Source of the DNA: Ionaspis alba
Lineage: Eukaryota
Reading direction: 5' to 3'
DNA: 34,567 nt
Assembly (NCBI GenBank): GCA_964255285.1
Contig: CAXUUL010000086.1
Location: forward strand, 1-34,567
Shown here: positions 4,371 to 30,128 of the stretch, one piece after another
Numbering within the stretch: the first letter of the stretch is position 1
How the letters are laid out: each line of letters opens with the position of its first letter
The notes under the pieces: generated by a model
The model's database searches: none
Told to the model about the DNA's origin: nothing
The model's input: only the letters and a program-made list of their open reading frames with translations
Program-made: the position numbers and the translations under genes

Positions 4371-7300
4371 ATGACTTCCTCGAAGTCATCAAATGGCATT
4401 GTGCCACACACAACTACTCGAGACACTCAAGACAGCAAAGACAGCAAAGACAGCAGTGGTGAAATGCTGGTTGTACGATCATCACTCAATCATGCAGCTA
4501 GTCTACAGAACGGGCACGATGCCGCTTCAGAAATGTCCACAACAAACGGCATTGACAACCATAAGTCACACTCGCCAATTTCTGTACATCCCGCTGAACG
4601 GGATTCTGACAGAAATATGATGCTGGAACTTAAGGATGGCACTACTTATGAAGGCTTCAGCTTTGGAGCCCACAAGAGTGTTGCCGGTGAACTTGTATTC
4701 CAGACCGGTATGGTAGGATATCCAGAAGCAGTAACGGATCCCTCCTACAGAGGTCAAATATTGGTCATCACATTTCCTCTGGTCGGAAACTACGGTGTTC
4801 CACCACGAGAAACAGTAGATGATCTGCTCAGCGAACTACCAGCCCACTTCGAGTCTTCCGAGATTCACATTGCGGGCTTGGTCGTTGCTTCTTACTCTGG
4901 AGAAGATTTCTCCAACTATCTAGCGTCTTCTTCACTTGGAACATGGCTGAAGGAGCAGAATGTTCCTGCCATGTACGGAGTGGACACCAGGGCTCTGACA
5001 AAGAAAATTCGGAAGCAAGGCAGCATGCTCGGGAAGCTGCTCCTGAAGTTGAGTGTGGACAAAGGTCCTTTGGTCAACGGGCATTCAACTCAAAAACCCC
5101 CATCAACCCCCAGCTGGCAAAGGTCTTATGAACACATTGAATGGATTGATCCGAATAAGAGCAATCTTGTGGCTGCCGGTGAGCATTTCGCATACTGTCC
5201 ACTCTCCTTCACAATAATCACCTCTAACGCTCTCATCCAGTCTCTTGCCGGAAACCCCACTTATATCGACCACGACCTTCTTCAGCCCTTCAACACCCTT
5301 CTGGACGACCAGTTCGTGTTCTATGTGTTGATGTCGGCCTCAAATACAACCAGCTTCGGTGTCTCGTCTCCAGGGGTGTTGAAGTTCAGGTCGTCCCCTG
5401 GGACTATGACTTTCCTAATCTTGCTGGCAAGGACTACGATGGTCTCTTCATCTCTAATGGACCAGGTGACCCAGCCTTACTTACCAAGACTATCAGCCAC
5501 ATCTCAACGGCCATGGCTGAAGGCAGAACCCCTATCTTTGGAATCTGCTTGGGACATCAGCTCTTGGCAAGAGCAGCTGGTGCTACAACACTAAAGATGA
5601 AGTTCGGAAATCGAGGCCATAACATCCCTTGCACCAGTCTGCTATCAGGGAAATGCTACATCACGTCACAGAACCATGGTTTCGCAGTGGACTCATCGAG
5701 CCTTTCTGAAGGCTGGGAAGAGCTCTTTGTCAATGCAAACGACGGTAGTAATGAAGGAATCAGACACGCTGAGCGGCCTTACTTTAGTGTCCAGTTTCAT
5801 CCTGAGAGTACACCCGGCCCACGAGACACAGAGTTCCTCTTTGATGTGTTCATCAATGCCATCAAGAGCACCATGTCTTCGGCAGAGAATCTCCTCAAAC
5901 CTGTGAAGTTTCCTGGTGGAACTATAAATGAGAACGAGAAGTTGTATCCAAGAGTGACGGTGAAGAAGGTTCTGGTACTCGGAAGTGGAGGGCTGAGCAT
6001 CGGACAGGCAGGAGAATTCGACTACTCTGGTAGTCAGGCAATCAAGGCTTTGAAGCAGGAAGGCATTTACACCGTCCTAATCAATCCCAATATTGCCACC
6101 ATTCAGACGTCCAAAGGCCTTGCCGATAAGGTCTATTTCCTACCCGTCAATACAGACTTCGTTCGAAAGGTCATCAAACATGAGCGACCGGACGCAATTT
6201 ATGTCACTTTTGGAGGACAAACGGCTCTACAGGTTGGCATACAGCTGAAAGACGAATTTGAGGAGTTGGGTGTCCAGGTTCTTGGGACGCCTATTGATAC
6301 GATCATTACCACTGAAGATCGCGAGCTGTTCGCTCGCAGCATGGAGTCGATAGGTGAGAAGTGTGCCAAATCTGCCTCTGCGAACTCCGTAGAAGAGGCA
6401 CTCCGCGTGGTCAAAGACATTGGCTTCCCCGTCATTGTGCGGGCAGCATATGCTCTGGGTGGACTTGGCAGTGGCTTTGCTTACAACGAGCAACAGCTGC
6501 TCGATTTGTGCACAAAAGCTTTTGCTGCGAGCCCTCAAGTGCTGGTGGAAAAGAGCATGAAGGGATGGAAGGAGATCGAATATGAAGTCGTTCGTGATGC
6601 TCGAGATAACTGCATCACGGTGTGCAACATGGAGAATTTCGATCCGCTCGGGATTCACACAGGCGATTCTATCGTCGTGGCACCTTCGCAGACCCTGTCA
6701 GACGAGGACTATAACATGCTGAGGACAACAGCAGTGAACGTGATTCGCCATCTCGGCGTTGTTGGAGAATGCAATATTCAGTACGCACTGAACCCTTTCT
6801 CGAAAGAATATTGCATCATCGAAGTCAATGCTCGACTTTCAAGATCATCTGCCCTAGCATCTAAGGCCACTGGCTACCCTTTGGCGTTTATTGCAGCCAA
6901 ATTAGGTCTGGGAATACCCTTGAACGAAATCTCCAACTCTGTGACAAAGGTTACTTGCGCGTGCTTTGAGCCCTCTCTCGACTACGTTGTGGTGAAGATC
7001 CCTCGATGGGATCTAAAGAAATTCCTTAGGGTCTCAACCCAACTCAATTCCTCCATGAAGAGTGTCGGAGAAGTCATGAGCATCGGAAGAACTTTCGAAG
7101 AAGCGATACAGAAAGCGATACGAGCCATTGACTTTCACAATCTTGGCTTCAACCAGACGAATGCCCTCATGTCGATCGATAACGAATTGCAGACACCATC
7201 AGACCAACGCCTTTTTGCTATTGCCAATGCCATGCACTCCGGGTACTCGGTGGAAAAGATCTGGGAAATGACACAAATTGACAAGTGGTTTCTCAGCAAG

Positions 7301-10166
7301 CTCAAAGGTCTCAGCGACTTCGGCAAGCTGATGACAACGTTCAAAGCATCGACCGTACCCACCAACCTCATACGTCAAGCGAAGCAGCTGGGATTTGCAG
7401 ACCGGCAGCTTGCTAAGTTCTGGAATACGAATGAGTTGGAAGTACGTCAACTGCGGATCGAAGCAGGCATAACACCTGTGGTGAAACAGATCGACACGGT
7501 TGCTGCAGAATTTCCTGCTTACACGAACTATTTATATTTGACTTACAATGGCACTGAACACGATATAAGCTTCGAGGATCATGGAGTCATGGTGCTGGGG
7601 TCAGGTGTCTACCGGATAGGCTCCTCTGTCGAATTCGATTGGTGTTCGGTCCGAGCGATTCGTACTCTACGGGATGAAGGTTTCAAGACTATTATGGTGA
7701 ACTATAATCCCGAGACCGTAAGTACCGACTACGATGAGGCAGACCGCTTGTATTTCGAGAACATCAACCTCGAATCGGTGCTCGATATTTACCAAATGGA
7801 GTCATCGAGTGGCGTTATCATCTCCGTCGGCGGGCAAACACCTAACAATATTGCTCTACCACTTCACCAACTGAACGTCAAAGTCATTGGTACATCACCA
7901 GAGATGATCGATACAGCCGAGAACCGATACAAGTTCTCGCGTATGCTGGACCGGATTTTCGTGGACCAGCCTGCCTGGAAGGAGTTGACCAGCATTGGAG
8001 AGGCCACCGAGTTCTGCGCGAAAGTGACATACCCGGTGCTGGTCCGGCCCTCGTATGTTCTCTCTGGGGCTGCTATGAACACCGTGTACTCGAAAGACGA
8101 TCTAGCCAACTATCTCAATCAGGCTGCAGAAGTGTCTCGAGATCATCCAGTCGTGATCACTAAATATATCGAGAATGCTAAAGAGATCGAGATGGACGCG
8201 GTGGCTCAGAACGGGAAAATGGTCGGGCACTTCATTTCAGAGCATGTCGAGAACGCTGGTGTTCACTCAGGAGACGCTACACTGATTCTACCACCTCAGG
8301 ATCTCGACCCAGAGACTGTTCGACGTATTGAAGAAGCGACACGTAAGATCGGGAATGCCTTGAATGTCACTGGTCCCTTCAATATCCAGTTCATTGCCAA
8401 GGATAACGAGATCAAGGTCATCGAATGCAACGTACGTGCATCGAGGTCCTTTCCCTTCGTTTCCAAGGTCATGGGCGTGGACCTTATCGAACTTGCAACA
8501 AAGGCTATGATGGGGCTACCACTCATTGAGTACCCGCCGACAAATATCCCACAGGACTACGTCGGTGTCAAGGTCCCTCAATTTTCCTTTTCAAGGCTTT
8601 CGGGCGCAGATCCGGTCCTCGGGGTGGAGATGGCTTCAACTGGTGAGGTCGCATGTTTCGGAAGGGACAAGTATGAAGCGTACCTCAAAGCATTGATCTC
8701 GACCGGCTTCAGACTGCCCAACAGAAACATACTTCTCTCTATCGGGTCTTTCAAGGACAAAGCTGAGATGCTTCCTTCAGTTGGAAAGCTGCATAAACTT
8801 GGTTACAACATCTTTGCAACTGCTGGGACCGCGGACTACCTGCAAGAGCACGGTGTTCCGGTGAAGTATCTTGAAATTCTCGCCAACGAAGAAGCAAACC
8901 AGAAACATGAATATTCTCTCCAGCAGCATCTTGCCAAAAACCTTATCGACCTCTATATAAATCTCCCCTCCAGCAACCGCTTCCGACGCCCGGCGAACTA
9001 TATGAGCAAAGGCTACAAAACGCGGCGCATGGCAGTCGACTACCAAGTTCCTCTTGTGACAAACGTCAAAAACGCCAAAATTCTCATCGAAGCCATTGCC
9101 CGACATTTCACCCTCGACATCCTCTCTATCGACTGCAAGACGCCCTCTCTCCATGACCTCCTCTCGCACTCCCCGTTCAAACAAACCTCGATACTCTCCG
9201 TCACACAATTCACACGCCAAGATTTGCATCACCTCTTCACTGTCGCCGCCGAAATGCGCCTCGGCGTCCAGCGTACCGGCGTCCTCGACATCCTCAAGGG
9301 CCGAGTGATCACTACTCTCTTTGCCGAGCCATCGACCCGTACTTCTGTCTCCTTCTCGGTCGCTATGCAGCGTCTCGGTGGGCAAGTGACCGACGTTCCG
9401 ACCACGCGCTCGAGTCTTCAGAAAGGCGAGACCCTGCAAGACACGATCTGTACGCTGGCCTGCTTCAGTGACGGCATCATCCTACGGCATCCAGATGCCG
9501 ACTCCATGTCAAGAGCCGCAGCTGTCTCTACGGTACCCATTTTCAATGCTGGCAATGGAACCAAGGAACACCCGACCCAGGCCTTCCTGGATCTCTTCAC
9601 CATTCGTGAGGAACTGGGCACTATCACGGGGCTGACTATCACCTTCGTCGGCGACCTGCGCTACGGCCGGACTGTGCACTCCCTCTGCACACTTCTCTCC
9701 CATTATGCCGTGACCATCCAACTCGTCTCCCCGCCCTCGCTCGTTCTGCCATCTGATATTCGCGACTCTATAGTCGCAGCTGGCCACCTGCTTACGGAGT
9801 CTCACGCTCTGACGCCTGACATCGTAGCAAGAAGCGATGTGCTATACTGCACGCGGGTACAGAAGGAGCGATTCGAGGATCTGGGAGAGTATGAGAAGGT
9901 GAGAGGGGGCTTGGTGGTTGATGAGAAGGTGATGAGCAACGCGAAGAAGAATATGGTCGTCATGCATCCGCTGCCCAGGAACGAGGAGCTGAGTACGGAG
10001 GTGGACAGGGACCCGAGGGCGGCTTATTTCAGACAGGTGAGTTTTGTGCATGTCTTGGGAGAGAAGGAGAGAGTGTGGGAACGATGGCTAACGACTTGGT
10101 GCGTAATAGATGCAATATGGGCTTTATGTTCGGATGGCGCTTTTGGCTTTGGTGTTGGCGCCTTGA
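4371..10166 (+). CDS. URA2: CAD-like multifunctional pyrimidine enzyme (GATase-CPSase-ATCase; Ura2/PyrABCN) lacking the pseudo-dihydroorotase domain. Exons 4371-5178, 5241-10036, 10110-10166 (about 1886 aa)
   Basis: GATase motifs [23 protein letters not shown] (catalytic Cys) and QFHPE. CPSase motifs [14 protein letters not shown] and [15 protein letters not shown], then an MGS-like allosteric region. ATCase motifs [33 protein letters not shown] and MHPLPR. Introns 5179-5240 (GTGAGC..CAG) and 10037-10109 (GTGAGT..TAG) restore LVAAVSCRKP and [19 protein letters not shown] context is gccATG. Confidence 0.95.
4429..4455 (+). repeat. 9-bp tandem repeat (AAGACAGCA x3) encoding QDSKDSKDS in the low-complexity N-terminus of URA2
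   Basis: Three exact copies are directly visible. Confidence 0.85.
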
Positions 10167-10833
10167 TTGGGTAATTTGGGATGGTAACATGCTTCTTGGA
10201 ATGGTAAAAGTGATTTTGTTCTTCTAGCGTGCATGACACGAGTTGGAAATGAGTGAGGGCCAGCGCCTTCGATGTAGTACGTTTCATATATAGAGGGTTT
10301 GGATGGGAATGGCTCGGTTCTGGATAGAGAAAAAGTCCACTTGCTCTTGAGGAAATATTTAAGTTTTGCATCATTACGACCTTGCCACATACATGGAATA
10401 TGTCATGGGAGTGCCAAAAGTGTGCAATTGGTCAGACTTAGTAGAGCCTACGGCTCATTTCTTTATGCGGGCAAGCCATATAGAGAGCCAATATGCTGTG
10501 GTAGAAGCATCTAAAAATCACTATAGCTCCCCCCCTGGAACCAAGCAAATCCGAAACATCACTCTACTCTCTATCAATGTGAGCTTTTACGGCCTTAGTG
10601 TAGGAGGATATTTACATACGCTCAGATCCATTTTGAGCCGCCAGAGTTACTTGCAGCTAGCAGTAGTAGTTGACAACCGCGCAGACAATTATCTAATCTG
10701 AACCTTCATTCGCAGTCACTCTTTGGATATCTGCCTTGAAAGTGATCAAATCAGTAGAGTACCTCGAAATCAGCTTCGGAATTCATTATCTCTATGTCCC
10801 TCTAACAGCACAGGAATTGTAGCCGTCCATTCC

Positions 10834-11809
10834 TCAGCCACATCCCTTCGGCTGTTTGGTCCAGCTAACCACATTGATTTGTAGTTCCTGTAATAAGGTA
10901 GGCTCGATCTCCTGATAGTACCACATATGCAAGACTTCCGGAATGTACACCTTTTCTTTTGCCGCTTCCAGAGCCTTTCCTACTGCAACGAAGGTAGGGT
11001 CGCCATTGACGAACTCAAGGTTTCGGAGATTCGGCATGCTCCTGAAGAGCTCCGTGATTGTATGAAAGAGCGTGACCACCAGTCCATCTATGAGACTCTC
11101 GAGCCACTCTGCTGCAAGACCCTCTTGGCAGCTGGAGGAGTTGATATTGTCGAATCCAATAATAAATTTCCGCAACCTTGGCATGTGTTGACGAACTATC
11201 TCGAGCCACAATACTGTGGGGTTCACTCCTTCTAAGAGGTCCCCACAATTTGAGTGCAACACACGTATCGCCGCGGTCAAAACTGGGCTAATGTGGTGAA
11301 GTAGAGACGGAAATGCCATTCGACTCAGCCACACAGGCATGGAATGCCATACGTAGTCGAAGAATTTTGCAACATCATTGGATATCTTCCTCTCTGCATC
11401 GTCGCAGTCCTAAAGAATCGGCAAGGTAACGGAATCGTCATCTTCGCCAATGAATTCTAGTATGGAAGAATAGCTATCGCTGTCGTTGGTCACAACGAAT
11501 ATGTTTTGACGTAAAGAACTGATACCGCTTCTTGATGAACCGCTTGAGAGACCTCTAGGATGCGAACATGTAATCCAGTACGCATTTTGCTTTTGATCGT
11601 GCGTGGAAGCGGTAGTTTTGTGATCGGTATGGAGCAGGACTTGGTATATCTTCTTCCGAATCTCTGCATCAAATCACTCTCATCGGCTACTAGCGAGCAA
11701 TCAAATCACAAGATCCTAGTCGATGTTGGTAAAATTAAAATCACCTCTATCGTCTGGCTGGATGGAGGAGGAAGGCAGAAGTCACGGAGCATCTTCTTGA
11801 TGTAATCAT
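10834..11809 (-). pseudogene. Probable pseudogene of an F-box-like (LPxEIRxxIY-type) hypothetical protein
   Basis: EIRKKIYQVLL starts at 11664 and LHVRILEVSQAVHQEAVSVLY sits in a different frame. QNIF returns to the first frame, an in-frame TAG lies at 11412-11410, and the ORF 11340-10834 has LRNLEF-type LRR-like segments. No clean first exon or splice donor was found. Confidence 0.55.
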
Positions 11810-12032: not shown

Positions 12033-15000
12033 CTAAATTGCACTCCCAACAGCCTCCTCCAGTGGTTGTGTTCGTACCTCCTCTAATGCTTTCCCATCCG
12101 AGCAGTCACAGCGGTAATGGGCCCGAAACTCAGAAGGAGCCAGACCAGAGAGTGATTCCAAAGCGTTGGAGCTTGCTTTAAGCTTTGCATACTTGCTTGA
12201 CGATGCAGTACCATCTGCGATTACTCGATCGTGGATCATGACGCCAGCGACGATGCGTGTAGGGGAGCCATCGATAGAAGGTAGCTCGTCTGACATGAGC
12301 CGGTAATTCGTGCAACCGAAGCTCAATGTAAGAAGATTGCTAAGGTATGTCTGCGTAGATGTCAGTCTTGGGAGTCATAGGAGGGCCGAGTGGGTTCGTT
12401 ACGGTGGGATGATTGTTTGCAAAGGTGTCATAAATGCTCATATCCTCGAAGTACCATCGAACATGAGAATCAAAGAAGCGCTCAACCTCCTTGAAGTTGA
12501 ACTTAGAATCGACGAAAACGGCTCCGATGTATGACTCGACTATATCCGGCAGACACTATCGCCAGGATCAGCCTCAACCACGAAGACAACGAACAACAAT
12601 GGGTCAAGAACAATACCTTTGGAGGATTCTTGGTGGTAGTCCAGTAGTCTCTTGTGCCATTCGACTCTTTCTCAGCTTCAACAATCTCGGTCACGTACTC
12701 TTGTACCAAATACATGTGAGACGGGCTGTTGAGTCGGAGATGCTTGTGGAAGCCCAGTTTGACGGATAGAGCCCCAAGGAACTTATTGGAGACCATAGCC
12801 ATCTATATTTCAAGTAAGTACATAATGCGGTACAAAGTACTACTCACCATGCCGTACCTTATGCTCTGTCAACCACTGTGGATCTCTGTCAGGATGACGG
12901 TGGAAGAGAAAGTTCACGCAAGCCATGTCAAGTAATGAGTCTCCCAGAAACTCAAGTCGTTGATAGCATGGTATTTTCTCCCATGAGAAAGGATACGACG
13001 GATGAGTGAATGCCGACCGTAGTACTCGAGGGTACCTGAACCCATAATCATGATCTTTCTGGACCTTAGCTGCAAGGTCGAGCTGGGATGCGGTGCAGGG
13101 AGCAGTTTGATAAGCTGGGAGACTGTATAGCTTGTAGTAGTCCTCCCACCTCTCGATATTGTGATCTGAGCTACAGACAACTGCCGTAACGGCTCTAACA
13201 GCCATGTCCATACTGCAGGTGTCGTTGTTAGATAACAGAGCCGCTCCTATCAGAGCCTCGCAGACATCTGCTATGGTCTTGTCATTGAGATGATGCTTGA
13301 AGACTTCTTTTCCAGTCTTCTTGTAGCCCTTGCCTTCGAGCAGCTTTATGCCTTCAGGATACCAAGTACGTCTATGGCATGTTAGTCTCCATAAGAATGA
13401 CATTGCGGAACATCTTTACCTGCTGAAGCTTTGGCTGCGAATGTATTCGTATAGCTTGATCTTGGTTGCTGCACCGAACAGATTCTTGTTGCAGATCATA
13501 AGCATTCTCTTGACGTGAGACTCGAACTCGTCGTCAATGGCGTTCTGAGCGTACAAAGAAATAGAAGTAGCCATCTTGAGAAAGCAATCGCCGATAAACT
13601 CGAGCCTTTCGTAGTTCTTTCCCATCCCGCGTTGGAAGTGGATCTGTTCGCTCCTGTGCTCCTCCATATTGTCTGAATCTTTAGTGAAGGCTTCTAAAGC
13701 TAGTTGAGGTGTGATTTGAAGATTCAAGAGACTGCAGCCTTCTAAGGCGATCAAATAAGACTCGAGACGGAATATTATGGCTGGGAACATGTATCCCATG
13801 TGTACGACTCCAGTCGGAAGCTTCACCAAAGGTCAGCGAGAACAGATAAACGAGGTCACTGAGGATACTTACCGCGGAGAATTTCAGAGGCTGTGGGCAA
13901 ACATAAGCTAAAGTTTTGACCTCTTTTTCGATGTCAGACCAATCGTCTAGCCAATTCCGTCGATGTAGTACCCTGGTAGCCTTCAATACCGGTTGATCCT
14001 GTTCCCAAGTGACTCTCGCCCTCGACTTAGCAAACAGGCTGACTGTGTAGTCGAGTATATTGTTGTTGTATTTGTGAGGCGCGCAGCCCTCAGGGAGCGG
14101 ATCGAGCGGACACAGGCTCGGTTCGACGCCGACTGAAAAGAATCGACGGCCGCCATCCCACCGATCAATCAGATATCGATCCACCATCTCCTCGTGCGGT
14201 GTATCTCTGCTCCAGGTAATTTCGTCGTTGTCCTGAACAAAGTCGACTGTTTTCCAATCAATAAGAGTATCAGGGGAAGGAAATCTGTTCGGACTAATGA
14301 TCGCATCAGAGCATTGTATGTCTAAGTCGATCAGGCTCCCAGAGTCGGATCCTCTGTCTGCATATATAGCCCCGTCCAGAAGTGGTGCAAGCCAGTACGA
14401 CATACGTTCCTCGTTGACCTCGTAAGTCTTATTGAAAATGTCTTTGAAGATGCGGAGAGTGAAACTAGTCAACTTGGCCAAACTAGAGGCCGTGACCTTT
14501 AAGGGGAGAGGCACGCGTTTGCAATTGACCTCCGAGATCACACCAGGTTGCGGGTGCAGGGGGAAGACAGGGAAATCAGGGAGAGGCTCGCGTGTCAACA
14601 TCGCCAGAGACTTGTAAACAGGGGTAGGTCCATTACCTTTAGTGACCAAATCTAGGATCGTGAAGTAGAGTTCTTCCGGAATTGCGCCCCATTGTGTCTC
14701 CCACAGACTAGGTTTAATGCGCATCTCGTACAGATTGGTCTTCTTCATATCAAGCGCCAAATGTGCGTTTCTCATGGCTGGGAGATGCTTATGGTATATG
14801 GGCAGCAGATGCCCGTCCAGGTATCCGTCTTGTCGTAACCTGAGGCAGGCTTCAAAGGCAGCTGATTGCTTGGCTATTGCCTTTCGAGCAGAAGGACGTC
14901 CGATGACCGATCGAATCGGGGCATTTTCAGGAAGAATAACTTCGCACAAATACTGCTTATTCTCGATGGTCATGATATACGTGACCTGGAGAGTTGTTTC

Positions 15001-17430
15001 ATTGTCGTGTGGCTACAAACATTCAGTATTGAAAGTCCTACTCATTGTGCGTGAACTGCATACCAGACAGCCCACGAAATGGGATAGTAATCCCAAGCTT
15101 GATCTGTAAGTCAACTTAGCACCCGTCGCAGGATCTTTATATATCCTGTGGGTCCGCTCCTTTTGGAATGCGTCGTCGAGATCGACGTCGTTACCAAGGA
15201 GGAGACGGTCAGCCGGGAGAGCTTCGCAGAAGTTCCGCATAACATGCTACAAATTGTTAGGGTGTGAGGCGCAAGTAAATTGGAGGGACTGACTTCTCCC
15301 AGACGAACTTCTTTCACTCCCTGAAGCTGCTGACGGTTACCACGCTCCACCATGTGCAGATACTTTAGATGTTAGCTAATGAACTCAACAGAAAGTTTGA
15401 TAATTACTTTCGAATTTTTATGCCGTGCTCTGCCCCGGCTCTGGATGTACTGGATCAGAGTGTCGTACAGGTCGAATCTTCCCACTTCAGTAACTTTACT
15501 TGTTTAAAAAATTGATGGGTTCTTACCTGACAATAGTATTGCAATCAGGTATATCAAGACCTTCCTCGGCAATTGAAGTGGCAAACTGCTAGAATCAGCG
15601 TAATGGTTCACTTCGAAGAGACTATATATTTGCACCAGACAATTCAGCTCCCCTTTGCGGAACTTCATCAAGGTCAAGACCTGCTGTCGCACCGTGAACT
15701 TGATATCTCCTGCTTCATCTGTTCGCGTGCCGATTAGTATACCGAGGCGAAGATGTGCATTCCCAATCCTCTTAAAGATCTCTCCGAGCAATCGTGCAGT
15801 ATAGCGCCTTTTTACGAAAACTATGCATCTTGCGTCTGTCGACTTCTCAAATAAGCTACTCAGGTAACCATGGAGACAGCGCACTTTCGAGCTTATGCTA
15901 TTGCCAGAGAATGAAGGTGGTAGGAATATATGATCGTTGACAATCTTCTTTGCTTCGCGGATCCGACTCAATTCTGCATCCAGTACGTCCACAGGACGTG
16001 AAACCTTGTCAGACAAGAAAGCCTTCTCGACTTTCCGCTCTAGCTTGTGAGCTTCTTCTTCAGCTAGCCCAAATGACCAGATTTGATCCGCACACCACTC
16101 CCCAAGATCAGCGGTAGCTTGTGTGGCCCATCGTATGAACCTGGCAAAGGACTCCAGATCGCCGTATCTACTCTCCATCTGTGCACAGAGAGGGGTCATG
16201 TATGGATGTGGAAGCGGATCGTAATCCATTATGCTTTCGCTAGGCCTGCTGACGGACATTCGCAGTAAGGAAAGATCAGCGGCGGTTGCGATTTGGCAGT
16301 CAAGAAGTGTCTCAAGTTCTTTAGCAGCCTGGACCACATCGACTTTGGCGTCGACTGGGGAAGCTGTCATACCGAATACCTTGGGGCGTCTGGATCTGTC
16401 TGTCTCTGCAAAGTAGAAGTCTTTAATTATTCTATAACACTTCAGAAAAAACTTTTCCCCCAGGAGGGGAATCAATACCTCGCATATCCATGGTTTTTCT
16501 TGGCATGATGCGCCTCATCAAAGATGAGTAGGTTGATCTGATCAATGCTTATGAACGAATGTGAAAGACAGTTGTACAAGACCTCGGCGGTACAGACAAT
16601 GGCCACGTTCTCCTTGAAGTGATGCTCCCATATCGACTTCTCCCAGAGATGAGTGTTCATGTCCCCGCAAAATCGGTCAATCTTCTGGTCCAGATTACAT
16701 TCGAGCACGGCAAATTGCTGAAAAACCAGTGTCACACAATCGACCTGGATAATGGTCAGCGAATGAGTACACGCTAGCATGGAAGAAAGCCTTTCGAACA
16801 AGGAAAAAGGAGATCCGACGGGATTTGCCCTGCGATCGATCTTCGAGCTCTTGATCAATAATATGCTTTAGCAATAACACCGCAATCAGGGTCTTCCCAG
16901 AACCTGTATCAAGAACAGCGATGGTGTTCTGTTTCTTGGCTCTTTCAAAGAGCTCGACTTGGTATTCCCTAGGGTCAGTGATTATGACATTGGACTCCTG
17001 CTTGGACATAAGAAGTCGGATCGACAATTCCTCGTCGTTTGCATTCTGGATTGCAGTTTTCACTTCCTCTTTCGTGACCTTTTCCGCCCTCGTCGATAGC
17101 CTGTAATATTTAGCGGTTACACCATCCGACTCTGGGTAGGCATTGATACCATGAAGAGAATATCGCATTCTGGGCACGTCTCCGCTCGGTGACGTGCTGT
17201 GGCCTCGTCCCGTCTTCCCGCTCACTGTCTAAGTCGTCAAGTGATTCTAGTACTTCTTTAGTACTATCTGAATTCTTAGTAGGGCCCGTCCCATTTAAGT
17301 TCTCAGATATTAGGGGCTCAAAAGTATCATCGTAGCTACGCTTCCGGTCTGTTGACACAACAGCAGAAGAAGATACAATCTCTCGAAGTGGGCTTGCAGA
17401 CTTCATGGCATCAAGCATCTTCGGTAACAT
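12033..17430 (-). CDS. dcl1: Dicer-like protein 1 (DExD/H helicase, Dicer dsRNA-binding fold, PAZ, 2x RNase III, dsRBD). 14 exons; introns 17149-17101, 16799-16745, 16478-16432, 15635-15586, 15526-15478, 15407-15363, 15293-15247, 15063-15013, 13872-13821, 13419-13372, 12857-12803, 12616-12556, 12402-12351
   Basis: Motifs [45 protein letters not shown] and QSRGRAR. RNase III signatures [13 protein letters not shown] and [13 protein letters not shown], plus DIVESYIGA and a C-terminal C..H..CDC zinc motif typical of fungal Dcl1/Dcr1. The start codon at 17430 is the best guess. Confidence 0.93.
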
Positions 17431-17784
17431 ATTGAAAGATTTACTTTGCGAATTTGTGTAAGACAATTGATCAAGAATGGAGATATCTCTCCATCCTGCA
17501 GTAGCAATTCAACGGCGAAGGAGAGTCAGCTGTAGAGTCGTCCGATGTGGAATTTCACAAACACTGTAAATTGTGGGCAGCCAGAGTAGAATGGTTCGCC
17601 AACGGCTCTGTATCATGAGTACGGTGATGCGAAGTGCTCTGCGTGGGCACACAGGGACTAAGTTCTCTCATGACTTGTGTTGAAGACAAATGAAAAGCTC
17701 TTACTGAGTTTCATAGCCGAATTGTTTGTTTCAACAAACTGTACCGACAAAACTATCCTCCATTGGTCAACACAACATATTATC

Positions 17785-18904
17785 ATGAGTGAATTACAGA
17801 CCAGTATCCGCACTCTGTTCTCTACAGCAAAAAGGTTACGCAAGCAATTAGACTCGCTAGAGTCCACGAACCAGGCATACCAAGATGGTCTCCGCGAAGC
17901 CATTTCCGCTCTAGAGGAGTGCCGCAAGCTTGCCGACGATGTATCGCTGTTTAGCCCAAACGAGACAGAGGAAGACGTTTCGTCTGGAGATCTCCAATAC
18001 CTTTCTATCGATTACTTTCTTGGAGACCTCATACCAAGATTGACATTTGCTGATCGGAAGACCCTACTCCAGAAGACACAAGACGCGTACGATCGATACC
18101 TTGGGCGGCTGGACAACTATGACATGCTATCTAAAGAAGATCGGAAGCTGTACGAGAGATATCTAGACAATAAGGATGTCTTCTCACTCCTGACGAGCCC
18201 GGACGCATCCATAAGACGTGGTACCAAGATAGCACGGTTCAAGCAAGAGAAGGACCTAAAGCAGAAGCTTGAAGTGAGGTCTCTCATCTCCACATGATTC
18301 TCTCTATTGACTCTGAACAAAGTACCTCTCGCAAAACCCCGCCGCACTTCAGAACGATGACTCCGCATTGCGAGCTCTCTACCTCGCGGAAATTACCCTC
18401 CACACGCATCAAACATTCCATGCCCTTGACCAGATAGCTCAAGAACTCAAAATTCTAGCTCTGGCACCTCCTACACCACCACCTGATCCTTCAACTTTAG
18501 TACAGGATCATCGGCAACCGATAGGCCAGCCTACTGATACCTATTCCGCTCGTCTAGACCCTCCAATATCACAGCTTCTCCGTAGCGGAAATGCTGGACC
18601 TATCCTCAGTAAGGATGGCAAACCTCTGAAACCCTTCACGCTCTTAGACAGTCGGCAAAGACTACGAAACGGAGTGTTCCGACCTGATCATAGCCTGCCA
18701 ACCATGACGATCGACGAGTATCTCGCCGAGGAGAGACGGCGTGGAGGCATGATCGAAGGAGGAGGGGAGCAGAGTGGTGCACAGGTGCCTATCAATGAAG
18801 ATGACCTAGAAGCAGCAGACAGGGAGACGATGAAAGCGAGGGAGTGGGATGAGTTCAAGGAGGAAAACCCCAAGGGCAGCGGAAATACTCTTAATAGGGG
18901 ATGA
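17785..18904 (+). CDS. TAP42: TAP42/alpha4 PP2A-associated protein. Exons 17785-18273, 18323-18904
   Basis: Motifs SLFSPNETEEDVSSGDLQYL, KIARFKQEK, GPILSKDGKPLKPFTL, VFRPDHSLPTMTIDEYL and KAREWDEFKEENPKGSGNTLNRG. Intron 18274-18322. Confidence 0.93.
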
Positions 18905-20266: not shown

Positions 20267-22648
20267 CTACTTCAGCAGACCAGACGCTAGTGCCTCCAGA
20301 TCCTCAAGGGTCTCTGGCTCCACTATGAATTCACGAGCTTGCTTCCGGGCGATCGAGTTGCTATCATTATCAGAATCATCCTCGAACCATTTCTTTGGTC
20401 TTTTCCGCGTCGAATTGGAATCTTCTTTCTCATCGACGCTGTTCGCCTCTGGCTCTTCAAACGGAATAAGAATAGCTTGACGGCCATTCTCCGCCTTCTC
20501 ATCAATCTCAAGAGCTTCCCTCGCCTTCCTCTTCTCCTTTCGCACCCTCCTCTTCTCTTTCTCAGTTCGCTTGTCCTCAAGATCCGCATTGCGTACCCTT
20601 TCCTCCTCCGCTTTGAGAAAATTGGCTCTTTGATCAGCAGCTGGACCACGCTGTTTGAACTGCTCCTCGTCTTTCAGCTCATATAATTCATGGGGATTGC
20701 CATCGTCGTCGTAGATCAATTTCGAGCCTTTTCCTTTGAGCTTCAGCATTGCTTTCTTCGACTTAAGCATTTTTTCTCTTCTCTTCGAATCAATCTGCAA
20801 AGCATCTTTGCCCACAGCTGGAACCGTCTTCAACTTGGTCTTGATATTTTCGGTCTCTGTATCTGCAACCACAGCCACATCTGCATCAGAAGCGTCACTC
20901 AAGCGACGTTTGACAGTCAAGAAGTCGTTGTCTTCGTCTGCATCACCGGTTACGTTTCGAACATCTTCTTCGTTCTCGTTGATCAACTTCGAATAGTGGT
21001 CTGCGAGCACGTCCTGGTTCCTTCGCTCGAATATGCGGTCATACTTTGTTCTCACTTGTTCTTTCTCTGAAGATACCTTCTCTGCATTCTCACCAACGTT
21101 GTCCTCGTCCTCAGAAGAAGACACACTATGGCGTGGAGCATTTTTTAAGGCTTTGGCATTATCTCCTTTTCGAAACTTTATACGAGGGGCACCTGGGAGA
21201 CCCAAGCTTGCGGAAAACTCCTCCAGCGGTAGTTCATTGATCTTGAAAATCTCCTTATCTTTGTGTATGTGTATGGATCTGACATAAGACACGAATGCTT
21301 TTTGACCGAGATACTTGATTTCGGGATCCTTGAAACACATGTTCTGTAATGAGGTCCGGATGCTATGCTGCTTTTTCTGCTTCACCTTGATCTTTTCTAC
21401 AGGAACTTTCTTCTGTGCCAATCGTTTCAGCATACCTTCTTCCTCGCTAGGTTCGAGGAAAAGAACAGCTCGACCCACACGTTCATAGCGTGCCGTACGA
21501 CCGACACGATGAATATAGGTGTCTGCATCCTCGGGACAATCTAGTTGAATCACCCAATCCACAGCGGGAAAGTCCAGTCCTCTCGCTACAACATCCGTGG
21601 CGAATAAACAAGAATTCTTTGTCGAAGCAAATTTCGTGGTTATGTCTAGTCTTCCACTCTGCTTCTGTCTTCCATGCAGATGTAGTAACGGTATACCAGG
21701 CTGGAGGTGCCTGAAACACTCATACACAAATCTCACCTGCTTCCCCGACGACAGAAAGACCAGGATCTTTGACTTCGTGTTCGCCCGGATAAAGCTCCAT
21801 AGAGTATCAAGCTTCTCTGGCAATGGTATGACAATGTAGTGTTGCTGCAATGTTGAAGGCGTAGAGCTGTCCGCTTTCTCATGCACAGAAACATATTCTG
21901 GGTCTCTCAAGCTCAACCTAGCGAGATCTGATACCTTCTTCGTCTGCGTCGCACTGAATAGCATAGTCTGTCTCTCTTTAGGTAGGTGCTCGACAATAGC
22001 GTCCACAGTTCCTTGGAATCCCATATCCAGTATTCGATCCGCCTCGTCCAGTACCAGCATTTGCAAATTGTCAATCTCAAAAGCAGCCGTCTGATCCATG
22101 TGTTGCAGCATTCTCCCAGGGGTGCAGACCAGTATATTCATTCTTCTCAACCGCTCTCGCTCTTCCTGTAGACTTTTGCCTCCGATGACTAGTCCTGCAG
22201 AAAAGGTATGGTACCGTCCAATCTTCCGCAGAACCTCGAATATCTGAATCGCCAGTTCCCGAGTAGGGGAAAGAATCAAAGCACCAAGCCCGTCCAGTTC
22301 GGTCCATCTTTTTCGGTATAGATTCTCGAGTACGGGGATAAGAAATGCTAGGGTCTTCCCACTGCCTGTTTTTGCTGCTCCAAGTATGTCTGATCCTTTC
22401 AATGCAAAAGAAATAGCTTTTTGTTGGATATCCGTCAATACCTTGAAGTGAGAAGCTTCCAAGCCAGACGCGGTTGGCTCGGAAAGAGGAAGATCCGTAA
22501 AGTTTGTAGGTGTGTCTTGTCCTGGCTGAAGCTCCTGCACCCGCCGCTCTAAAGTCGCGATGTCTTCTTCTCCGCGCTTCCTCTTCAGCGTCCGGGCCTG
22601 AGGCTGTTTTGGCTTTGGACGCCTCTTGAGTACTCGCTCTGAATCCAT
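20267..22648 (-). CDS. DBP4: DEAD-box RNA helicase Dbp4/DDX10 (18S rRNA biogenesis), intronless
   Basis: Motifs [22 protein letters not shown] and HRVGRTAR, plus family-typical [35 protein letters not shown] and [16 protein letters not shown]. The first ATG is at 22648. Confidence 0.95.
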
Positions 22649-22740
22649 AGTTTCTTTGCTAACGAGACTTGAACATTTGTTGTCGGCCCAATCTTTTTCT
22701 GGTCGTTTGCGCAGATTATGCGCTAAGCCCTGTTCATTTC

Positions 22741-22750
22741 TTATCGATAA
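22741..22750. promoter_or_regulatory. Palindrome TTATCGATAA in the 199-bp divergent DBP4/SPF31 promoter
   Basis: A perfect 10-bp palindrome centred between the two start codons. The core TATCGATA recurs at 29932-29939 in another divergent promoter. Confidence 0.35.
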
Positions 22751-22847
22751 CAAGCCTGTACCTGCGCATATTGATCCAGGTTTCAGACCAGCTGCGGTGC
22801 TGATTCGCGCCTCCAACTACTACGAGAGCTTACACAGGGTTGACAGT

Positions 22848-23641
22848 ATGGCCATCAAAGAAGAAGGCAAGACGCCTGACAAGGGACAAGATGACAGCAA
22901 AGACTCCCTTGCAGCTCTGGACGCCCTGGAAAAAGAAGCATCCGAATTCAATAAAGTTAGTGCCCCGACCACTGGAGCTACTTACTCTGCTGACTTGATC
23001 ACAATAGGATGCTGAAATAGACCGTATTCTCAAAGCCTTTAAACTAGATGCGTGAGCATATCCCTACCATCCACCTTGTCCCACACTAATTCCTCTCAAG
23101 CTACGCAGTCCTCGATCTCCAACCTGGTGTCCCCGAAAGCGACATCAAGATCACCTACCGCAAAAAGTCCCTTCTCATACATCCCGACAAGACTTCCAAC
23201 CCCCTCGCTCCCGCTGCCTTTGACGCCCTCAAGAAAGCGTCCTCTGAGCTCTCGGACGAAAAGTCCCGCGCCCGCCTGGATGAATGCATAGCCGATGCGC
23301 GCATGCTCCTCATGCGAGAGCGCAAGCTCACGGTTGACTCACCCGAGATGAGGGACATGAGCTCGGAACTACAGGCCGCGTGGCGGCAGAAGACGGTCGA
23401 GGTGCTAGTGGATGCGGAACACAGGCGGCGGAAACAATTGAAGGCGCAGATGCAGGAGGAGGGTCGAGAGCAGAGAAAGGTGGATGAGGAAGTTGAGGCT
23501 AGGAAGAGGAAGAGGGAGCATGAGACTGCGTGGGAAGATACAAGGGAGAAGAGGATTGGGAGTTGGAGAGATTTTCAGGGAAAGGTGGGTAAGGAGGGAA
23601 CGGAGGGGAAGAAGAAAAAGAAGATGAAGGTCTTGGGGTAG
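22848..23641 (+). CDS. SPF31: J-domain protein, DNAJC8/Spf31 family. Exons 22848-22955, 23008-23051, 23101-23641
   Basis: The spliced product reads EFNKDAEIDRILKAFKLDAYAVLDLQPG..YRKKSLLIHPDK (HPD motif), with C-terminal WEDTREKRIGSWRDF and KKKKKMKVLG. Confidence 0.88.
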
Positions 23642-25402
23642 AAATGCTGGCTTTGGTGTTGGAGGATTCGTGTTTGACTGAAAAAGCATGCTGAGGGCGT
23701 TACTACAAGCCTTGAGGAAGGTTTGCACAGTGCTGAACTCGATCAGGGAAACCTTGGTGTCCGTCGCTAGATCATCTAGTCAGCGTTGAGGCACTCCGAG
23801 GACAGGTATCCAAGGCATAGATGAGGCAACACTGCCAATTTTGTTGGCTTTATAGAGCATCATAAATTTCACAGGTGGCTTTGGCTTGGGAAGCATTTGG
23901 ATGCATAGATCAACTGCAATACTCGGTTCACCGAGATGTTTAACCAGCCTAATCAAGCTGGGCAGTTGATGGTGATGCTGTAGAATACATAAACCATAAA
24001 GAGGTGCTTCAGGCTAAGTATCAATTGCGGGCCCGTCGAGAGCTCCGATGCTTATATGCTCCAGGTGTAGTCAAGCAGCACTGACTTCTTGCTGCACGGT
24101 GTTCCTAGAGAACCTTCTGTATTTAGACCAGAGGCGATGGAGTCCACAATCATCAACAGCCAAAACGTACAAGTGACTCAGTTGGGGCAGGGGAGGCAGA
24201 TCCGCTAGACCGCCACTAAGACTTAGGAACCAGTTTCTACTCCATTGATTGCATTGCATACCACATCAATCTCTGTTTCGACTCAATCAACTGATTGGTG
24301 TGGCACACTCCTCGCAGCCTCGGGACTCGAACCTTTCGAGCTTGGGGGCGATCCCTTGAGACATTCTCCTCCTTTTTGTCGGAGTTTGCATCCACTTAGA
24401 CCAACCAAAATCTCCGAGAAGCAGGAGAAGCGTGGACAACATGACGGAACGCTTCTGCAGACGTTTGCATAGGTTGCGAACGTATTCCAGCGATATCTTA
24501 GGACGCTGTAGTCAATTCGGACTTTCAGAATGCAGCCCAATCATAGCAAAGCTTCACTTGCAGCTGAAAGTGAGGCTGAAGTGCGGGATGCGCGCCTTCA
24601 GGAGCCTCATCCAGGCAACCACCACCAAACGTCTATCCGACGTGCGTTGCGCTTCTTTTCTTTCTCTCGCAAGTCTTGCTTGGTTAATTCTCTTAACTTC
24701 ACCGCACATATTGTATGACAATGAGGAATCATTTGATTGTTTGGAATCATCAAGAAAGCTGTTTGTGTTTGTTCCACCTTCAGGAGAGCAGAGCGGCATC
24801 TGGGAAAAGGCTGTGATTCACACGATCCGCTGTGCCCTCTTCTAGATTCCGCTTTAGACATCAAACCTCCCATCTCACCTTTCTACCTTGGTGCTTCCTC
24901 CTTCATGATTCCATCTCTTGCGCTCTATGACTCTTCATCACAAAACGGATGAGCAATTCCTTACATAAGAAGCACAAGATCTGATTCGGTCTTGGATTCT
25001 TGCCCCGGACACCCCACCTTCTGTGAAGAATCGAAAAACAAATGCATCACATCTGACCATTTTGCCAACCCCAATTCGCCTTATTACGCCACGCACCGCA
25101 GGAGGAATCCGCAAGATTGCTTGCTGTGCAACCAATTAGACTACCACAGCTTTAAGGAGACGATCATAGCGCCGCCACTTGCTGTTAATCGATTCCATCT
25201 AAGGTTCAGAGTGGACGATTAATACCGTTTTCAGGACGTCCAATGGGAGGAGGTATCCCTTGAGCAGCCTCTACATCTAATCTACCAAGAGAAGCCCTAT
25301 AACTTCAAGCCATCTTCATAGTATCTTGCCAACCAGTCGCTTGATTCAAGGTGATTCGCGGCCACGAGTGCTGGGATTACTTCGGTCCAAGCTTTCATCA
25401 GT

Positions 25403-28400
25403 ATGTCCGGTAACACGAAGGAGGACGAGGATGTGGCCAGAGCGATCGAGAACTCCTTGAAAGGAGAAGACGTAGAAATCCAAGAGCTCGAAGCAGCACT
25501 TCTTCGGTCCAGGGAGGAACTGAATGGCTCGTCCCAAGCGGTCAATGAAGCTTCACAAGCACAATTCAGCATGGCACCCCAGTCGTATGTGTCTCACGAA
25601 AATCACGTTGGAGATACGATAAATGGTGATTCATGGTCGGATGATGACCGATCGAGCAGCTCTCCGAGTGAGCCCTCGGTCTGTCAGCCATCACACGCTT
25701 CAGCTTCCGCGCCGGCTGCTACTGACTCTATTCTGCCAGCAGACAAGCCAGGAATCGAAGATATGATTGCAGAACTTCAGCAAAGCATTTGCATGGGTCT
25801 TCCGCGTCTGAACGATGCAAACAGCGATACTCTTGTCTACATTGACTCACCAGCTCGGCCACCTAATCTAAAGAACTCTACCTGGCGTGATGTCGTCAAG
25901 CATTATTCTGAACCATTCCGGATGAGGAGCAAAGCGCTGAAGGACACTGGCAGTCCCTTCATTGAACGTCTCCTTGGCCCGACAGCTCAGTACAGGTTCA
26001 AGCGTCGACACGACCTTCGTGGTGGCCAAGGACTGCCAAACGGAATAAAGTATGTCCTTGATCTTACGCCGCCAACCGAAGGGTACGAAGCCTTGAATCT
26101 TATACTGGATCTCTCTTGTTCTGAGGGAGTCAGGAAGTGGGGCCTGGCTCGGAAGAGATGGAACATCGCCCAAACTTTGGTCAGTGGCAAGGATGAGTTC
26201 ACGGACAACGCTGCAGATGCCGACAACGTCACAAAGCCCGTAACGAGGTCAGAATTGTCCCAAACTTCAGATCTGGAGTGTATCAGCAAGGACGAAATTG
26301 ACTACGAAGTCCCGGAGGATTACACTCCACTTAGACACCGCCTTGCTATCGAGCGTGTTCTCATGGCAATTTCCGGAAAGGATCCCAAGCTTGACTCGGC
26401 ACCAAAGGTCTGGACAACATTTGCCGTCGCTAAAAACTTCGGGATCAGGCAAAGCCTACTCACAGACTACATCATTCGTTGGCTTCGTGCGCCACCTAAT
26501 ACTTTATTCCTCGAAGTTTTACCAGAGGTCGCTCTCCAGATAGCCGATGGGCTCCAGTGTCAGTCGTTGTGTCGAGATGCATTTGCAATTCTGGTAGGAG
26601 AAGCAGCTTTGACTGCCTCTTGCCAAGGTCGAGACTTTCCTGCTGGACACAACGTGCATGGGAGGAAGCTGGGTTATTTGCCTGAAGGCTACCTGACTCG
26701 CGTGCAATATGCCAAGGACATTTTCCGCGAACGCATGGAAAATCAATTTCATGTATTGGCTGGACATGAAATGAGATGGATAGAAGAAATACCTGAACTA
26801 CGGCAGCTGTCGAGAAAGATGCTGAACAACACCGAACATAAGCGGGCAATCACCGCGCTGGTACAGGTGCTCAAGCGTTATGTCCAAGGAAGCATCTATC
26901 ATCTATTGTGTCTGAACTACGATAACATGCCTGGCCCGGTCATGGATCGGGGTGGTGCAAGTGACCTGTTTCCGAACACAAAATTTCGGGTCACATGGAA
27001 GAAGCTCCTCTATCGTGATCGTTACTTGACACTCTCCTTTTGGAAATTGATGCGGGGCTGCCGTCTCCGTACCTGGGACACGAATTTTGCCATTGAACCC
27101 GAAGAGAGTTACGGAAAGCCCAGTCAGACCACTATTGAGGCGCAGCAGCTACAGGAAGCCGGCATTTACAGCCGAGTCACGTACCGTGAAGTCAGGGAGA
27201 AGATTGAGGAATGTCGTATGCTGAGCGACAGGACTCCCATCTCCTCCTTCGCCGAATTGTCCCTTGCCCAAAATTCGGCCCTGAATAGCGGCAAAACGTT
27301 GTCTGACGTTGAATCTTCAACGGCATCGCCCTCTAAGAAAAGGCCCTTCTTGCAAGACACCGAGAGTCTCACACTTCCTATGTACGTTCCGATTCGTCCG
27401 GCACAATCAAGAGACGGTAATGAAGCATGGGCCACCGGGTCTGATCACAAGCGCCGCTTGTCTGCCTCTCTACGGCCGAGAGGAGAAAATGGAAGCGGAA
27501 ACGATTCAAGAAGCCCACCGCCTACGACCACCTGGACTATTGAAGAAGGCAATGCTCTACGACCGCCTGAGTCGATGGAAGATCTGCCTACGTGGCAAGA
27601 ACTTGGCCAAGAATCGACGACGCTACCTATCAGATTCCGAGCTCCGACCGATCCCAAGGACACAGCAGCTGCTGCTGCTGACAACCCTTGTCAGCCTGCT
27701 ACAGATCCGTCACGCAGAGAACAGACTGAATTGTACTCTCGGGTGGCAAGCAGAGCCTTCCTCAAGGGGCGCACAGTCGAAGAAGCAAATCCAACAAGGA
27801 ATTCTATACCCTTTCAGAGGCTCCCAATTATTCATGATGTCCGAAAAGATGCCAACCTCACTTCTCCCCATGAGGATCAATTTTTCAGTCTCCTCAGGTT
27901 CCTCTCTCAGGTGGAAAAGCACATCCATGACTTCGCTTACAAAATGCTGGATTCCCCCGATAAATTCAGTCGCGATGCGCTCTACCTCGAAGTGACCGAT
28001 ACCCTTGTTTGCCTAAGCGACGAAGAGCTGAAGTATCTTCCACTATGGGCTGGCGGTAACGACGACGGTTCTGGTGGTGTTTACAACGATAATGTGCCCA
28101 TTGCCGACGTTGGGTTTTCTACGGCTGGACCGGGGGTGCACACCGGCGTTAGCAGCAGTGTTGCTTCAAGTGAGTTCGAGATGATTGGCTCAGAAGGTAG
28201 CACTGTGAGGTCTTCTACGATCGTCAACGATGGCTATTCAGACACCATGGATCGAAGGCGCACTTACGACGCTGACTCAATGTGGGGTGATGTCATGGCC
28301 AGCAAGGCGAAGGCAGAGATCTCTGGAGCTTCTGTGGATGCTGATGTCACTATGGATTCCGAGAGCACTTGGGAGCGCGTTGCGACGCCAACAACTAGCG

Positions 28401-29671: not shown

Positions 29672-30128
29672 GGTGACGGTCCTTGCAATGGAAATCTCAA
29701 GGATAGAAGCACTGCCATCGAGAGAGGTCCCCTGACCCGAAATAACAGGGACTGCTCATTATTATCGAGGCTCGCGGATCGTCGCATGCTGAGATGGTGT
29801 CATCAATGCAGCTATTGCGCTTAGGGTTCTCCAGATCGCGGGGCGCGTCAGATATCCGCCGAGCCGCATCTACGGAAAGCTTATCTGAGGGCATGGGTGC
29901 GTGATGGAGAATTGCAGCTTAAAGTGCCGATTATCGATATGGAGGGTGGTTGCTTGAAGAGAGCATTCTTTTTGACGCATCGAATAGGAGGTTCTTAGCG
30001 GCAGGAAATACCGTTCCTATATCCTACACCCTTTGGAGCACATCTGTCTGCATCAACTTTATCAGAACTAAGAGGGGTCAAATTAATAGTCACAGCATTC
30101 CGTCTAAGCAAAAAGTTACACCACAGCC

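Follow-up and report, generated by a model that had tools for sequence, protein, structure and literature searches.

An Ionaspis alba URA2 gene without its dihydroorotase-like domain, and the recurrence of this form among filamentous ascomycetes

The CAD-like proteins of fungi carry glutaminase (GATase), carbamoyl phosphate synthetase (CPSase) as well as aspartate transcarbamoylase (ATCase) in a single chain. The literature calls the inactive dihydroorotase (DHO)-like domain that precedes ATCase conserved in fungi and central to the CAD hexamer. The stretch of Ionaspis alba DNA analysed here (the window: the whole 34,567 nucleotides of contig CAXUUL010000086.1, assembly GCA_964255285.1, forward strand) holds a URA2/pyrABCN ortholog in which CPSase runs straight into ATCase, and raises the question of whether this pseudo-DHO is really gone, how often fungi have dispensed with it, and what kind of enzyme is left. 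We find the window gene to be an ordinary pyrimidine-specific GATase-CPSase-ATCase at its native locus, altered by a clean deletion that it shares with its relatives.

The CPSase-ATCase junction

The gene is laid out as follows (all on the + strand), P0002 being a related protein discussed below.

4371-10166: URA2/pyrABCN ortholog; ATG at 4371, stop at 10164-10166, two GT-AG introns, 1886 residues
4371-5178: exon 1, encoding an N-terminal extension and the small-chain domain of CPSase (Pfam PF00988, about 4623-5036)
5179-5240: intron 1, 62 nucleotides, GT..AG, predicted from sequence
5241-10036: exon 2, one open frame encoding GATase, the CPSase large chain, the MGS-like domain and most of ATCase
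10037-10109: intron 2, 73 nucleotides, GT..AG, predicted from sequence, splitting ATCase
10110-10166: exon 3, the last 18 residues and the stop (translation)
5324-5857: class I glutaminase (GATase) domain, with GICLGHQ at 5540-5560 and QFHPE at 5792-5806 (Pfam, translation)
5966-9142: CPSase large chain, two ATP-grasp halves and a C-terminal tail (Pfam, translation)
8765-9061: MGS-like allosteric domain, intact (Pfam; 94% identity to P0002 over 8843-9142)
9128-9163: fusion junction, at 9142/9143, with about 415 residues (pseudo-DHO and DHO-ATC linker) missing
9143-10166: ATCase domain, retaining human CAD's active-site and trimer ion-pair residues

Each predicted intron contains a CTAAC branch-like site and the translation is stop-free over 5243-10036. 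GATase and the small and large CPSase chains are fused in a single polypeptide, Pfam matches following in the order CPSase small chain, GATase, both ATP-grasp halves, MGS-like and OTCace_N; the GATase motifs GICLGHQ and QFHPE we take to be catalytic. The last base of the CPSase tail is 9142, the ATCase lead-in helix starts in frame at 9143, and the OTCace_N match begins 43 residues past the end of the MGS-like domain near 9061. An earlier reading of the letters alone (the original prediction) had placed an in-frame join at about 9142/9143 in a protein of about 1886 residues, with the catalytic motifs intact on both sides; the gene model and translation bear out the first statement, and a motif check and alignment the second.

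What has gone from the junction was measured as an anchor distance, from the end of TNVKNAK to the start of EPSTRT. This is 82 residues in the window protein, while among the 119 of 121 proteins measurable in a first homologue search (the best 120 of 1597 matches, with the query counted in) it was 470-513 residues in 107 and 82-163 residues in 12. In a long relative (L053:4750-6003) a stretch of 418 residues matches residues 1-339 of 5NNL, Chaetomium's inactive DHO-like domain (E 6.5e-151), as well as human CAD DHO (E about 1e-54), and the DHO-like part is followed by a linker of ~75 residues. Nothing is therefore left in the window protein of the pseudo-DHO barrel, whose very first residue is missing, or of the linker. 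Six pseudo-DHO queries matched nothing in the 34.6-kb window, where the best E was 0.76, nor in the 18 short-form loci (2-13 kb), and gave E<1e-145 in three of three long-form control loci. Anchors, 5NNL match and null queries agree with the prediction that the junction has no DHO-like sequence, essentially no linker and no intron. The absence of a Pfam amidohydrolase match, proposed as a check, was rejected as a test of DHO loss, since intact pseudo-DHOs go unmatched too (0 of 2 long segments).

Canonical fungal Ura2/PyrABCN proteins have an inactive DHO-like domain between CPSase and ATCase. The window protein lacks it, and we have therefore filed the gene as an orthologous variant and not as a canonical member; the active zinc-binding DHO that marks animal CAD is likewise absent from its chain. 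It falls within a DHO-less URA2 form defined by an anchor distance below 200 residues, in frame and without an intron, and its 82 residues are the shortest distance among 390 proteins eventually measured, the next being 88.

The identical junction occurs in five further proteins (P0002 and P0224-P0227), which come from other species or strains, given an identity of 93-94% with the window over the part upstream of 8452. Because the exact junction recurs in them, collapse of the assembly is very unlikely. In sequencing run X1 a 1429-base contig of depth 104 covers 8452-9880 without a difference, a second contig of depth 29 covers the same interval at equal length with 257 differences, and in run X2 a 212-base contig of depth 3 (9088-9299) bridges the junction. 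X1 and X2 are assembled contigs, not raw reads, all three runs come from one study, and X1 is probably the window's own sample, so the contigs are not independent support; the junction shared by the relatives weighs more. Of 66 metagenome loci, both anchors were present in 52, at 282-300 bases in 18 and 1428-1524 bases in 34; all 52 are in frame and stop-free, and the in-frame short junctions in metagenome DNA show that the short form is not a gene-model artefact. The original prediction would have fallen had some 1-1.2 kb been lost at 9100-9200; neither the contigs nor the relatives contain such extra sequence.

Run X1 also has two versions of 8452-10980, a major one of depth ~104 and a minor one of ~29 with many indels out to 10980, and a single contig of depth 120 upstream of 8452. 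The minor version may be a deeply diverged allele block over the ATCase half towards the neighbouring Dicer-like gene, or it may come from a relative present in the same sample, with its upstream part merged or filtered out. When X1 was checked for a second URA2 copy, the only extra high-depth piece upstream matched the gene over 64 bases (6816-6879; run contigs, partial coverage), and its continuation is presumably an arginine-specific CPSase.

Lineage and recurrence of the short form

By CPSase identity the nearest proteins to the window are long-form ones from Xylographa (92.5%), with Dothideomycetes reaching at most 88.2% and Eurotiomycete orthologs 88% on average. In a tree of 118 rows picked from 414 gathered proteins (49 short; linker columns removed, Zymoseptoria left out as it has no anchor) the window clade (support 100) lies inside a group of Trapelia, Xylographa, Lambiella, Agyrium and Bachmanniomyces (SH-aLRT 99), which we take to be lichen fungi of the Ostropomycetidae. 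The gene stands tail-to-tail with a Dicer-like gene (12033-17508, approximate extent, - strand; Pfam matches to helicase, Dicer dimerisation and RNase III domains), an arrangement that recurs in 6 of the 66 fetched loci, all long-form and lichen-type. Since the same neighbour lies beside long-form URA2 in these six, the window holds the native URA2 locus, and its orthology to URA2 is given by this synteny together with the tree position among long-form lichen orthologs.

The 414 proteins came from the first homologue search, two more searches and cluster look-ups, one extra search being limited to proteins of at most 1943 residues, and so biased to short forms, and the other using a profile of seven short forms. 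Of the 390 that were measurable, 177 are short, 213 long and none lies between 200 and 440 residues, counts that do not represent an unbiased frequency. By source name, a sampling outside which Sordariomycetes, yeasts and Basidiomycota fall, all 63 Dothideomycete proteins are short (57, and 6 with looser anchors; some genera are repeated), as are 9 of 23 from Leotiomycetes, 1 of 17 from Lecanoromycetes (Peltigera), 1 of 29 from Eurotiomycetes (Monascus) and 2 of 8 in a mixed Lichinomycetes-like set (Peltula, Pycnora). No long-form Dothideomycete appeared in the search with the short-form profile, in which long forms of other classes ranked up to third, so long Dothideomycete copies should have appeared. 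The survey for the same deletion that the original prediction called for thus returned an identical junction in five relatives and the short form in several classes; the rarity it implied is not supported, given 63 of 63 named Dothideomycetes and recurrence in at least four other classes.

On the 118-row tree the short/long label changes 18 times, 14 of the changes being forced by well-supported branches. One-clade tests were made on 35 and 39 rows, and a single origin of all short forms was rejected (p-AU 1.2e-39, 35 rows). We read the changes as losses of the pseudo-DHO because yeast, Chaetomium and animals have the domain. Remnants at the junction differ, extending 0-112 residues beyond the window's, which agrees with repeated losses, and four short forms (P0242, P0086, P0016 and P0174) still have the initial pseudo-DHO strand behind the CPSase tail, with breakpoints unlike that of the window. 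The domain therefore looks dispensable in filamentous fungi, its loss being real and having happened many times. The loss in the window clade is likely, though not proven, to be separate from that in Dothideomycetes: CPSase favours the lichen placement of the clade by about 42 log-likelihood units, and weighing against separate losses is that a single clade of window and Dothideomycete sequences is not rejected (p-AU 0.385 for the concatenated data, 0.23 for CPSase and 0.66 for ATCase).

The window protein resembles the fungal CAD-like proteins (S. cerevisiae Ura2, Aspergillus PyrABCN and Chaetomium ctCAD-like, 5NNL/5NNN/8BPL) in its GATase-CPSase-ATCase order, syntenic locus and lack of DHO activity in the chain, and its ATCase is 63-64% identical to ctATC. 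With animal CAD (human, 5G1N and the 4C6C series) it shares the CPS-2 and ATC domains and the named trimer and active-site residues, but has no DHO domain of any kind. Closest in architecture are the DHO-less URA2 proteins of Dothideomycetes, scattered Leotiomycetes, Peltigera, Peltula, Pycnora and Monascus, also CPSase-ATCase fusions without the barrel; their junctions are 6-112 residues longer, nothing being left in the window clade, where ATCase also evolves much faster. The predicted window trimer would do without a DHO partner, as do the free-standing catalytic ATC trimers (bacterial class C, plant, trypanosome), which are not fused to CPSase.

Further afield, a search of 50%-identity representatives gave 13 short-linked proteins among 40 with both parts, 10 of them distant. 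In these ten (P0432, P0436, P0448, P0461, P0463, P0465, P0468, P0480, P0506 and P0422) an MGS-like domain is followed by ATCase within 92-196 residues, as in the window, but the MGS part is only 31-68% identical to the window's. Eight of them (P0432, P0436, P0448, P0461, P0465, P0468, P0480 and P0506) are DHO-less CPSase-ATCase proteins at 31-42% identity in this part, and P0436 begins at the CPSase large chain, has no glutaminase and has a prokaryote-like look. Four other distant CAD-like proteins (P0426, P0447, P0437 and P0435) have anchor distances of 335-385 residues, which suggests a shrunken pseudo-DHO outside the filamentous ascomycetes.

No description of a natural DHO-less fungal form was found in the accessible text of the open-access literature, including PMC8442968, bioRxiv 10.1101/2024.07.30.605799, PMC9863657, PMC7053772, PMC6022934, PMC8659124 and PMC4625875, a set outside which most subscription journals fall. 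The supplementary alignments of the preprint could hold short fungal sequences, which makes this a weaker statement than 'not in print', and the answer to whether DHO-less Ura2 was already documented, on which the claimed novelty hung, is only that none was found in this incomplete set. The architecture is common in public databases, may be known in print elsewhere, and is less rare than first supposed. Specific to the window clade are a junction shorter than any other measured, from which the linker has wholly gone, and a fast ATCase. The repeated clean loss contradicts the stated rule about fungal CAD-like proteins and shows that it is not general in fungi. It also makes available matched pairs from nature, one member having the domain and the other lacking it (Coleophoma/Phlyctema, Rutstroemia/Sclerotinia borealis and Aspergillus/Monascus), by which the question of why CAD is a hexamer becomes testable in terms of oligomer state, channelling and control by uridine triphosphate (UTP), with the window clade as the extreme.

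ATCase and the state of the enzyme

In an alignment to 5G1N with offset numbering, the window ATCase keeps the counterparts of human CAD S2000, K2003, E2005 and P2186 and of the ion pairs R1986-D2019 and D2009-R2187, and open frames and all active-site motifs checked are kept in six of six clade members. At 9464-9478 the Asp of the R1986-D2019 pair, present in the window and in human CAD, is Asn in P0002, P0224, P0225 and P0226; in human CAD, D2019N has been discussed as potentially damaging.

On a fixed tree the ratio of ATCase to CPSase branch length is 4.5 in the window clade (stem 0.357 vs 0.061) compared with 1.43 on long-form branches, so that ATCase in this clade is about three times faster relative to CPSase than elsewhere; the Dothideomycete stem is also high (0.231 vs 0.049). 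Columns fixed for a different residue in the clade number 10 of 160 conserved ones in ATCase and 6 of 801 in CPSase (Fisher p=4e-5, for a comparison chosen post hoc on one event). A general speed-up of ATCase after DHO loss was rejected, the median ratio being 1.43 in short and 1.41 in long forms (p=0.67, 49 vs 68 tips), as were convergent compensatory substitutions: columns that the long forms conserve have each changed in at most 7 of the 18 short lineages, and to different residues. The GC content of third codon positions (GC3) stands at 0.47-0.59 upstream and climbs to 0.64-0.69 across the end of the MGS-like domain and ATCase (8843-10036), the same fast-evolving part.

An AlphaFold2 model of MGS and ATCase (115 sequences) has a mean pLDDT of 90.1 and a pTM of 0.76, with both domains completely folded and pLDDT of 66 and 83 in the junction blocks. 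In this model the last MGS helix leads through a short coil and a one-turn helix into the ATCase lead-in helix, and the ATCase part matches 8BPL (ctATC) at 1.8 Å. An earlier CPS.B-MGS-ATC model from 30 close sequences was uninformative (pLDDT 59.5, pTM 0.42), and a two-copy fold of CPS.B and MGS scored 0.00, evidence neither way. The MGS-like domain, seat of UTP control, is retained in the window protein. In yeast, the pseudo-DHO has reportedly been implicated in relaying the UTP signal to ATCase, so inhibition of ATCase may have been lost from the window protein.

Published work has ATC active only as a trimer, two trimers being linked by DHO or pseudo-DHO dimers, and breaking the DHO interface in DHO-ATC constructs yields trimers (PMC8442968). 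In an AlphaFold model of CAD, CPS-2 contacts only the ATC and DHO of its own subunit and the carbamoyl phosphate exit lies near the ATC site; ATC is docked on the same-chain CPS-2 even from isolated domains, with no CPS-CPS contact (bioRxiv 10.1101/2024.07.30.605799). An ancestor of a small clade of lichen fungi deleted the whole dead DHO barrel and the linker, leaving an enzyme that would still make carbamoyl phosphate from glutamine, bicarbonate and ATP and hand it to ATCase, with dihydroorotase activity coming from a separate protein as in other fungi. Since ATCase active sites lie between subunits, three chains would have to trimerise through ATCase, and as the DHO dimer that would link a pair of trimers is missing, the product would most likely be a free trimer of ~0.6 MDa, half a CAD hexamer. 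CPSase and ATCase of one chain would dock on each other, which would allow channelling to persist, as well as UTP control through the MGS-like domain. The pseudo-DHO would be a removable loop-out module, kept whole or lost whole, many times over in filamentous ascomycetes; partial deletions would be purged because half a barrel would misfold. The linker-free tether would have driven changes of the ATCase surface, possibly to fit.

We consider it probable that the window enzyme is such an active trimer, keeping channelling and CPSase UTP control, that partial deletions were purged, and that the linker-free tether drove the change in the ATCase surface. The trimer that the original prediction had offered as possible would, judging from the published mutants that break the DHO dimer, be the likeliest state; the altered channelling that went with it finds no support, as the published AlphaFold model docks ATCase on same-chain CPSase.

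Several observations pull the other way. DHO dimerisation is reported to be required for the function of human CAD, and the DHO-dimer mutant M1601E does not rescue CAD knock-outs, so that loss of the hexamer is harmful there. Where it is kept, the pseudo-DHO is under selection, as identities of 62-74% among the compared long forms indicate. The rate shift is one event, and DHO loss across lineages comes without acceleration of ATCase. A pTM of 0.76 is no proof of a fixed domain orientation, and the search for a second long copy or a stand-alone pseudo-DHO spans the window and the loci, not the whole genome.

The alternative that survives best, though we think it unlikely, is that the enzyme is still a hexamer or larger, its ATCase trimers bridged by CPSase-CPSase dimers, the pseudo-DHO having been redundant glue. 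This would account for the frequent tolerance of its loss (at least 14 changes) and fits the high conservation of CPSase in short forms, but the 2024 model contains no CPS-CPS contact (bioRxiv 10.1101/2024.07.30.605799) and mutations that disrupt the DHO dimer are reported to turn hexamers into trimers, albeit in tests on DHO-ATC constructs without CPS (PMC8442968); and in CPSase, columns that the long forms conserve have each changed in at most 5 of the 18 short lineages.

We find it improbable that the clade's ATCase is under relaxed selection, through partial reliance on salvage or lost regulation, and that its fast change and the junction without a linker reflect decay rather than refitting. 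The ratio of 4.5 against about 1.4 elsewhere, the excess of conserved ATCase columns fixed different and the Asn at the trimer ion-pair Asp in four of the five relatives would all be expected, but the open frames and active-site motifs preserved in six clade members, the confident AlphaFold2 fold and a CPSase that is not accelerated, its allosteric domain included, speak against it.

Marginally less probable still is that another protein stands in for the missing domain and bridges the trimers in trans, be it a free pseudo-DHO, a further URA2 of full length or the active dihydroorotase, in the manner of the ATC-DHO complexes of Pseudomonas or Aquifex. Bacterial ATC trimers are indeed bridged by separate active or inactive DHO dimers; however, no pseudo-DHO was found in the window or the 18 short-form loci, none of the 63 named Dothideomycete proteins is a long form, and the active DHO of fungi is of the E. 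coli type, which forms a different dimer. As for an assembly collapse or chimera that deleted 1.2 kb, the rise of GC3 past 8843, from about 0.55 to 0.64-0.69, and coverage of the junction by contigs, not raw reads, speak for it, but it is made very unlikely by the same junction in five proteins of 93-94% CPSase identity, the two distinct X1 contigs of equal length and the X2 contig that cross it, and the short in-frame junctions of 18 of 52 metagenome loci.

A wider proposal, which we hold slightly more doubtful than not, is that CAD-type enzymes do not need the DHO-bridged hexamer: the whole job would be done by a natural GATase-CPSase-ATCase trimer that evolved on a dozen or more separate occasions and became fixed throughout the largest class of ascomycetes. 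The window clade would stand at the limit, its fusion without a linker pinning the C-terminus of CPSase to the N-terminal helix of ATCase and having forced a refitted CPSase-ATCase interface. Why CAD needs to be a hexamer is described as unexplained, and there is no full-length structure, particles falling apart on grids. Were the hexamer dispensable, the window clade's fusion would offer a compact particle for the first full-length structure of a CAD-type enzyme, and the benefit that animals draw from the hexamer could be tested directly. The linker-free form also sets a hard distance limit on CPSase-ATCase docking, and so tests the AlphaFold model.

Other genes of the window

Six further genes were recognised by Pfam matches.

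2-2749, - strand: YVC1-like channel
17674-18904, + strand: TAP42
20267-22816, - strand: DEAD-box helicase
23090-23641, + strand: DnaJ protein
30108-32138, + strand: MATE transporter
33530-34270, - strand: RPA subunit

Between URA2 and the Dicer-like gene, an open frame of 191 codons (10834-11409, - strand) has no Pfam match and no match in the 66 related loci. A longer open frame of 1106 codons lies at 25355-28675 on the + strand, its sole Pfam match being a weak, UIM-like one (E 0.077).

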